Source: Verrucomicrobiota bacterium (GTDB taxonomy: Bacteria; Verrucomicrobiota; Verrucomicrobiia; Limisphaerales; AAA164-E04). Taken from it: 64,000 bases of DNA. The stretch covers positions 2,976,001 through 3,040,000 of the forward strand of contig CP170459.1 of the NCBI GenBank assembly GCA_047947115.1, read 5' to 3'. The stretch's first letter is position 1; each line of letters begins with the position of its first letter. The notes under the pieces were generated by a model, which saw nothing but the letters and a program-made list of their open reading frames with translations, did no database searches and was not told the DNA's origin. The translations under genes and the position numbers were made by a program. Of this stretch, positions 34,891 through 35,372 are shown piece by piece.

Positions 34891-34972
34891 TGGTTGTAAT
34901 TGCAATGCGGTGCGAAAGTTTCTGGGAGCCAGATGGTTTTTGGGCCAAAAAGGGGCTAAAATCGAAGAAAAT

Positions 34973-35049
34973 TGGTTGCGGGGACAGGATTTGAACCTGT
35001 GATCCCGCAGTCGCGGGATTATGAGCCTGACGAGCTACCGGGCTGCTCC
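34973..35049 (-). pseudogene. Degenerate copy of initiator tRNA-Met (CAT)
   Basis: Minus strand reads GGAGCAGCCCGGTAGCTCGTCAGGCTCATAA-[TCCCGCGACTGCGGGA]-TCACAGGTTCAAATCCTGTCCCCGCAACCA. The 5' acceptor strand is missing and CCTGAAGG is replaced by a hairpin. Confidence 0.85.
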
Positions 35050-35306
35050 TTCTGAAGGCCGGTAAAATTGTAGAATCCTTGACCTCCTTTTTGGCGTTTG
35101 AGGAAGGATTCGACCTTGCGTGCCTCCGATAAAGTGGGATACTCCTGATTCCATACCAGTCTCCAAGGAAGGTGATTACGTGTCCATTTGGATTCTCCGG
35201 TATTGTGTTGCACTAGTCGATGTTCAGGATCAACGCTGACACCAATGTAGTGTTGCCCCTGTGTATTTCGAATGACATAAACCCAATGTGGCTGAGTTGA
35301 ATCCAT
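35019..35306 (-). CDS. Stand-alone GIY-YIG endonuclease (UPF0213/SLX1-like)
   Basis: WVYVI...HYIG.S.D...RL.QHN.G...WT...PW.LV...ARKVE..LK. The tail EQPGSSSGS* is read from tRNA sequence. Confidence 0.9.
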   Translation of the reverse strand: MDSTQPHWVYVIRNTQGQHYIGVSVDPEHRLVQHNTGESKWTRNHLPWRLVWNQEYPTLSEARKVESFLKRQKGGQGFYNFTGLQKEQPGSSSGS

Positions 35307-35325
35307 TGGAATTAACGAAGAAAAT

Positions 35326-35372
35326 TGGTTGCGGGGACAGGATTTGAACCTGTGACCTTCAGGTTATGAGCC
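35326..35372 (-). other. 3' half of tRNA-fMet, serving as the prophage att junction
   Basis: GGCTCATAACCTGAAGGTCACAGGTTCAAATCCTGTCCCCGCAACCA on the minus strand. Similarity to tRNA stops just 5' of the anticodon loop, about 135 bp from the integrase start. Confidence 0.85.

Follow-up and report, generated by a model that had tools for sequence, protein, structure and literature searches.

Results

Architecture of the locus

The DNA analysed here (the window) comprises 64,000 nt from a Verrucomicrobiota bacterium (GCA_047947115.1, contig CP170459.1, positions 2,976,001-3,040,000). On its minus strand a single open reading frame (ORF) lies between two exact 40-bp direct repeats of tRNA-fMet sequence, spaced by 353 bp (Table 1). 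Read along this strand, a phage arm is followed by nt 31-77 of tRNA-fMet, a 19-nt leader and the body of the ORF; then come tRNA nt 9-39, a 16-nt hairpin, tRNA nt 48-77, a 10-nt trailer and the end of an old element, where all tRNA positions are numbered on the genome's own 77-nt tRNA-fMet. The 31 nt copied from tRNA nt 9-39 encode EQPGSSSGS and a stop, i.e. the last nine codons of the ORF and its stop codon are tRNA-fMet sequence, and the three 3'-terminal bases of the anticodon loop serve as this stop codon. The hairpin stands directly 3' of this stop and takes the place of 8 nt of the anticodon arm (tRNA nt 40-47).

These findings confirm the preliminary description of the locus, which had claimed the exact repeats and their distance, a 95-aa GIY-YIG ORF starting shortly after a CCA, and a C-terminus and stop codon derived from tRNA-fMet. 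The absence of a transposase or integrase from the unit is likewise borne out: it holds one ORF, and the integrase and att pair present at the locus are those of a prophage. ARAGORN called no tRNA in the window and an Rfam search of the unit region gave no match, because the tRNA copies are too broken.

Table 1. Features of the 353-bp unit and its surroundings, in window coordinates.
Feature	Position	Strand	Remark
End of older related integrative element, leftover (likely)	34820-34962	-	likeness to the prophage's other end
Downstream 40-bp repeat	34963-35002	-	tRNA-fMet nt 48-77 (T-arm, 3' acceptor strand, CCA) and 10 nt of trailer
16-nt hairpin, TCCCGC-N4-GCGGGA	35003-35018	-	7-bp stem counting the flanking A-T; predicted nuclease-binding site
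Copy of tRNA-fMet nt 9-39 (D-arm to anticodon loop)	35019-35049	-	identity to the genome's tRNA
GIY-YIG nuclease ORF, single-domain, Slx1/UPF0213-like fold	35019-35306	-	95 aa
Leader, CCA to ATG, 19 nt	35307-35325	-	length and part of the sequence resemble the leader of the related L022 unit
Upstream 40-bp repeat	35316-35355	-	within the prophage att repeat
att core (attR), 57 bp	35316-35372	-	identical to genome 3052437-3052493
Short direct repeats, 10-bp spacing	35447-35492	+	likely arm-type sites of the prophage integrase
Tyrosine integrase	35508-36806	+	prophage gene, outside the unit

The upstream repeat belongs to a prophage

The genome's only tRNA-fMet gene lies outside the window (c3052447-3052523). 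The 57-bp identity between it and the att core covers the last 47 nt of the tRNA and the following 10 nt, and the 41 kb between the unit and this intact tRNA carry genes for an integrase, a DNA polymerase, a terminase, a portal protein, a protease and a major head protein. Thus, the upstream 40-bp repeat belongs to the attR of a prophage of 41 kb that has integrated in tRNA-fMet. The prophage, which extends from window positions 35373-64000 to genome position 3052493, appears complete with its own DNA polymerase and head and tail genes; it also has two methyltransferase-like ORFs and, as cargo near the integrase, a BlaI/BlaR1-like pair (37727-40028).

Downstream of the unit, 130 of 153 nt (trailer counted) match the other end of the prophage beside the intact tRNA-fMet, and this stretch was likely left by an older element. 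Insertion of the prophage first or of the unit first gives the identical sequence, so that the order of events is indistinguishable. At non-orthologous places in two further genomes, tRNA-fMet att fragments are joined directly to a similar element end with no unit in between (L288 in G001, L289 in G007), which suggests that related islands are stacked at tRNA-fMet in the genus. Elsewhere in the window, positions 28003-34510 hold a gene cluster with an MFS transporter; from their motifs we take its other genes to be an amine-oxidase-like and a DUF1365-like gene, two cyclopropane-fatty-acid-synthase-like methyltransferases and a membrane protein.

Transcription by read-through from the tRNA, as proposed in the preliminary description, is unsupported at the window locus because the 41-kb prophage separates the tRNA promoter from the unit, which no longer follows it. 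No promoter-like site was found there either, i.e. no sigma-70-like sequence on the minus strand between 34700 and 35700. Six RNA runs contain 8-33% of the sequence words searched for, a share for which the tRNA-derived parts alone could account. Read-through is plausible for the 65 of 97 homologous loci (see below) with an intact tRNA upstream.

The interior of the unit was recovered from independent sequencing data. In three of four runs from different studies, single contigs (326-334 nt, one mismatch) span 35020 to 35345-35353, and the fourth run covers the same stretch in pieces. These read-derived contigs end within the repeats; they thus back the inside of the unit and its two junctions with tRNA sequence but say nothing on copy number. 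Contig depth was likewise not taken as copy number, and the lack of prophage-arm cover in runs X1 and X6 proves nothing.

The unit encodes a bare GIY-YIG domain under purifying selection

The 95-aa protein matches the Pfam GIY-YIG family (PF01541, E=6.7e-15) and has no second Pfam domain. Residues Y10, Y20, G22, R30, H34 and E66 are conserved among homologues, with Y10, Y20 and E66 at 90% or above; judged from their position, these three would correspond to Y6, Y17 and E64 of the Neisseria meningitidis nuclease SsnA. AlphaFold2 predicts with confidence a GIY-YIG fold (pLDDT 89.9) that ends near residue 82, and the tRNA-derived tail is predicted to be disordered (pLDDT <50 for residues 90-95). 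The nearest relatives in sequence and fold are stand-alone Slx1-like/UPF0213 proteins (PDB 1ywl, 1zg2), which are likewise minimal domains without auxiliary parts: phmmer finds 1ywl with E=4.9e-8, and the top 12 Foldseek matches are UPF0213, Slx1 and HIGLE structures. For the prokaryotic members the accessible part of the literature gives a predicted role in DNA repair and no tRNA-gene or hairpin context (PMC1564403).

The ORF is under purifying selection, with pN far below pS in the 13 diverged pairs of the 16 compared, the other three pairs being nearly identical. Between the window ORF and that of L022, pN is 0.16 and pS 0.56 (80 codons). Host genes of the same two lineages (recA, two neighbouring genes and a tRNA-flanking gene) have a saturated pS of 0.77-0.81, and other element pairs reach a pS of 0.74-0.82. 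From this one pair and its 80 codons, the comparison suggests transfer of the ORF after the hosts had split.

In a quick tree, built after removal of six fused, truncated or broken rows and of about two thirds of the metagenome rows by thinning, the nucleases cluster by tRNA type, the fMet group forming one side of a branch with support 85. Two Ssn-like proxies, namely GIY-YIG proteins found beside matches to NTS, the SsnA hairpin sequence, in 80 viral loci, are 26-31% identical to the unit protein and lie outside the fMet group, on a branch of their own (length 2.39). Membership in the Ssn clade (cd10448) was judged by these two proxies, not by true Ssn proteins, and the unit protein falls outside; because of the low identity and the separate branch we do not file it as Ssn. 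It shares with Ssn the small single domain with catalytic-type Tyr, Tyr and Glu and the SRM-type hairpin beside the gene.

The same design recurs at homologous loci

Besides the window we collected 124 loci: 80 metagenome loci, the best of 453 that matched a peptide pattern taken from the protein core, 29 from a search of 401 genomes of the phylum, and 15 others. Of these, 97 reach at least 100 bits against the alignment (window excluded). These counts are not independent samples, because loci were ranked by the window protein with its tRNA-derived tail and many are near-duplicates. The hairpin follows directly after the anticodon loop in 82 of the 97 loci, and in 79 the anticodon loop provides the stop codon; the hairpin pattern is absent in 15. 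The preliminary description had proposed looking for homologues with tRNA-derived protein tails and a tRNA association, and both were found. Upstream of the gene stands an intact tRNA-Met (65 loci) or a tRNA 3' fragment (25), with nothing in 4 and a contig end or too little DNA in 3. Of 159 retrieved proteins, 36 end in GS, as the fMet anticodon loop translates. On inspection by eye, the att type seen in the window accounts for 8 of the tRNA 3' fragments, and most of the rest belong to tandem units.

The 27 loci below 100 bits lie mostly at other tRNAs (Asn 6, Met 3, Pro 2, Arg 2, His 2), and the same design is found at tRNA-Thr, tRNA-Asn and elongator tRNA-Met. No viral contig carried a relative of the protein or the fMet-hairpin motif, and plasmids gave only three distant matches of about 40% identity, one of them in a chromosome-sized record, and no close carrier. 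Within the family, the hairpin motif occurs in 2 of 22 genomes. The layout is permuted in L049 and L056, where a hairpin copy precedes the gene. In L052 and L068 the anticodon loop, hairpin and tRNA 3' end recur in short tandem arrays that hold no gene and are likely non-autonomous derivatives.

The hairpin is the most conserved feature of the units. Across 60 variants the loop is free (2-7 nt) and the stem near-invariant, with one compensatory pair in three variants; G-T pairs are absent from all 60, where the outer three pairs were fixed by the search pattern and changes are too few to tell a DNA from an RNA hairpin. The stem core and the following TC are as in NTS in 82 of 97 loci, and the exact NTS 5' flank is absent. 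The hairpin has no U-tract. In L069, L104, L105 and L106 additional hairpins replace the T-loop. The hairpin points to an Ssn-like, hairpin-guided nuclease rather than to classical homing.

Copy-number alleles and repeats matching the local tRNA

The orthologous site is empty in three congeneric genomes (L268, L269, L270), and it holds one unit in L022 and two units in L019, both metagenome contigs with an upstream flank that is 96-98% identical. From the tRNA start to the shared flank we measure 89, 441 and 793 bp for zero, one and two units, i.e. steps of exactly 352 bp. The earlier claim of a minimal selfish nuclease unit that duplicates tRNA 3' ends, with tandem arrays and empty alleles to be looked for, is supported by this series together with the duplicated tRNA 3' end.

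We then compared the repeat after the hairpin with the tRNA of the same locus. Of 56 loci with an intact tRNA-Met and a hairpin, 10 were set aside, as their copy lacked an intact T-loop or their sequence or contig broke off, and collapsing the other 46 by shared trailer left 40. Among these 40 loci, which represent 21 tRNA variants, 32 carry behind the hairpin 30 nt that match the local tRNA exactly, and 8 differ; in 2000 shuffling trials the number of matches averaged 2.8 and never exceeded 10, versus the 32 observed. In L074 and L087, for example, the nucleases are 81% identical in amino acids and the host T-stems differ, and each repeat matches its own host. The repeat is thus host-templated, either at insertion or by later conversion, and the local match could stem from later gene conversion rather than from duplication at insertion.

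The junction at the 3' base of the hairpin is fixed across loci. Identity in the trailer extends over 0-80 nt; ahead of the anticodon loop, exact 5' identity spans only 0-14 nt, compared with 24 nt in the window. A crossover between the 3' repeats would remove the unit cleanly, whereas a crossover on the 5' side would produce a tRNA plugged by the hairpin; this may explain why the 5' homology usually decays.

Further units in the same genome

A second unit is present at tRNA-Thr(TGT) (c3758861-3759113; L012, L018), with an 83-aa GIY-YIG gene of another clade and a period of 327 bp. It follows the same order of tRNA, gene stopping in the D-arm copy, hairpin with the same outer stem and tRNA 3' copy. 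In G001 a broken relative of this unit lies behind a tRNA-Thr fragment (L008). A gene-less unit of 159 bp, composed of a promoter-like region, the tRNA 5' part and a hairpin, is located upstream of tRNA-fMet (c3052607-3052765; L266); the window's genome has one copy, G001 two (L267) and G002-G005 none. The loop of its hairpin is the reverse complement of the loop in the window. Genome-wide, 40 hairpin matches were found at up to 2 mismatches, 5 of them exact, in both orientations.

Discussion

Relation to known systems

The pairing of a nuclease with a hairpin is of a known kind, and for the tRNA-embedded arrangement we found no description in print: the literature yielded papers on Ssn, SegB and Slx1 and no account of such a unit, and the Ssn supplements and subscription papers could list such loci. 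According to the accessible part of the Ssn study (PMC11893778), SsnA binds the NTS hairpin in single-stranded DNA and cuts upstream of it; it requires the sequence of the stem and a C following the palindrome but not the loop, and the NTS 5' flank governs cleavage. Its authors propose an origin from a mobile element and describe hairpin copies scattered in the genome. Like Ssn with its NTS/SRM sequences, the present unit combines a single-domain GIY-YIG gene of about 95 aa with an adjoining hairpin of the same 6-bp stem core, in which the loop is free and the C after the palindrome is kept, and hairpin copies are dispersed in the genome. Unlike Ssn, with free repeats on both sides of the gene, it has one hairpin inside a tRNA copy and shows copy-number alleles; the word tRNA is absent from the accessible text of PMC11893778.

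SegB of phages T4 and T6 offers a second comparison. In the accessible parts of the two reports (PMC2330249, PMC13096335) it cuts tRNA genes, makes double-strand breaks at a T-loop motif, has a C-terminal NUMOD3 DNA-binding part and drives tandem amplification via homology between the 3' end of its gene and tRNA; weak sites in its own genome are tolerated. The present gene is likewise a free-standing GIY-YIG gene tied to tRNA genes (intact tRNA-Met upstream in 65 of 97 loci) with tandem amplification. It differs from SegB in being chromosomal rather than phage-encoded (neither a relative nor the motif was found in viral contigs), in lacking a C-terminal DNA-binding domain and in having a hairpin partner within the unit, where SegB has none. 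In addition, the filled allele does not lose the target: it retains the intact tRNA and duplicates the T-loop motif.

IS200/IS605 elements and REP/RAYT systems depend on HUH transposases, which cut and rejoin DNA. The unit protein has a GIY-YIG fold, not that of an HUH transposase, and since a GIY-YIG hydrolase is not known to rejoin DNA, the unit would need host recombination. It also differs from tRNA-targeting integrative elements in having no integrase or att pair of its own. With IS200/IS605 and REP/RAYT, as described in PMC11893778, it shares the small enzyme, the hairpin in single-stranded DNA and hairpin-only derivatives.

A hairpin-guided nicking nuclease and its alternatives

On balance our analysis tips towards a selfish unit with a hairpin-guided, single-strand-nicking nuclease that spreads via host recombination between tRNA repeats. 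By analogy with SsnA, the nuclease is predicted to recognise and bind the hairpin in single-stranded form and to nick the strand on its 5' side. Recombination between the 30-40-bp tRNA repeats, by unequal crossover or through a small circle as the same analogy suggests, could then add, remove or transfer whole units. The hairpin would disable the extra tRNA copy and leave the functional tRNA intact, which may be why the host tolerates the insert. In the window's genome a prophage has integrated at the same tRNA, so that the unit now follows an attR fragment. This reading is supported by the anatomy of the unit, the fixed hairpin junction, the alleles in steps of 352 bp, the repeats that match the local tRNA, purifying selection and the lower pS in one comparison. 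Against it stand the 15 of 97 loci with no hairpin, the 8 of 40 repeats that differ from the local tRNA and the fact that no transfer vehicle was found among viral contigs and plasmids, and the analogy to Ssn may fail given the identity of only 26-31%, the separate long branch and an NTS 5' flank that is not identical.

A SegB-like homing process is in our view rather unlikely, and it survives best among the alternatives. Here the nuclease would cut the uninterrupted anticodon arm of tDNA-fMet in the empty allele and repair would copy the unit in, the hairpin being a mere mark that destroys the target in the copy. The replacement of the same tRNA segment by the hairpin in 82 of 97 loci and the grouping of the nucleases by tRNA type are what sequence-specific targeting predicts, and SegB provides the precedent for cleavage of tRNA genes with tandem amplification. 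However, a filled allele still has its tRNA-fMet intact and in single copy, which means that the target is never removed; as SegB tolerates weak sites of its own, this argument is not absolute. Moreover, the protein has no DNA-binding domain beyond its catalytic core, and a mere mark would need no conserved stem, nor would it recur in the T-loop and in other tRNAs.

That the unit serves its host, as a nuclease for repair, restriction of incoming DNA or phage defence expressed behind a strong tRNA promoter, appears quite improbable. The hairpin would then be a signal for RNA processing or stabilization, for which its position directly after the stop speaks, as do the 40 similar dispersed hairpins; its missing U-tract and its occurrence in both orientations in the genome do not fit such a signal. 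Purifying selection on the ORF would also be expected of a useful gene, and SsnA restricts transforming DNA in Neisseria (accessible part of PMC11893778). The distribution, however, is patchy (2 of 22 family genomes), it is common for copies to be tandem, broken or without a gene, and in the window the gene is separated from the tRNA promoter.

A passive cargo of integrases of prophages or islands that use tRNA-fMet, with the repeats as att debris, is very unlikely. It is true that the upstream repeat in the window is an attR, that an old island end follows the unit and that an att-type tRNA fragment precedes 8 of the 97 homologous loci. Yet 65 of 97 show the plain order of tRNA, gene and hairpin, the junction is fixed at the hairpin, 17 nt from the start of the att core, and the design extends to tRNA-Thr, tRNA-Asn and elongator tRNA-Met. 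The unit is the sole difference between empty and filled alleles, and no viral contig carries it; given the clean series of zero, one and two units, this explanation is largely refuted. An assembly artefact, for which speak the hazard posed by short repeats and the finding that no read-derived contig bridges the full stretch, has a negligible chance and is already refuted as to the design, since the interior and junctions recur in independent runs and the design is found in dozens of genomes.

Implications

We put forward, as a tentative proposal that we would sooner doubt than assert, that such units represent a class of autonomous mobile elements of about 350 bp, made of a bare nicking nuclease and a DNA hairpin with no transposase, integrase or reverse transcriptase. 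They would colonise tRNA genes clade by clade, use the host's tRNA to form their ends whenever they insert, pass from one species to another, mobilise gene-less hairpin-tRNA derivatives and possibly be the selfish ancestors of domesticated Ssn/NTS systems. If this is true, they are among the smallest elements possible. Independently of this proposal, a large group of small Slx1-like GIY-YIG genes annotated as putative endonucleases probably has a selfish role; this group counts 3298 representatives at E<=0.001, with matches in 172 of the 401 phylum genomes, whose context was checked for part. The unit would also explain pseudo-tRNAs and tRNA-end repeats otherwise taken for att debris, may be a new source of hairpin-guided single-strand nucleases and bears on the origin of the Ssn hairpin repeats. 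The nuclease and its substrate, with natural empty, single and double alleles, form a directly testable pair. What the window locus adds is the series of zero, one and two units, the local-tRNA test, a hint of transfer and the displacement by a prophage.

Other small GIY-YIG genes and palindromes were seen along the way. L006, L007, L010 and L128 belong to another small GIY-YIG clade located 140-200 nt behind tRNA-His, SeC or Arg; their palindromic spacers are different and no tRNA copy follows the stop. In the window's genome, about ten hairpin copies are grouped within 13 kb (1341754-1354049), and others make up REP-like families that have distinct flanks. A further small GIY-YIG ORF, the third in this genome (c1875575-1875781), which is 36-37% identical to both Ssn-like proxies and has a palindrome-rich stretch upstream, is a candidate partner for these dispersed hairpin repeats.
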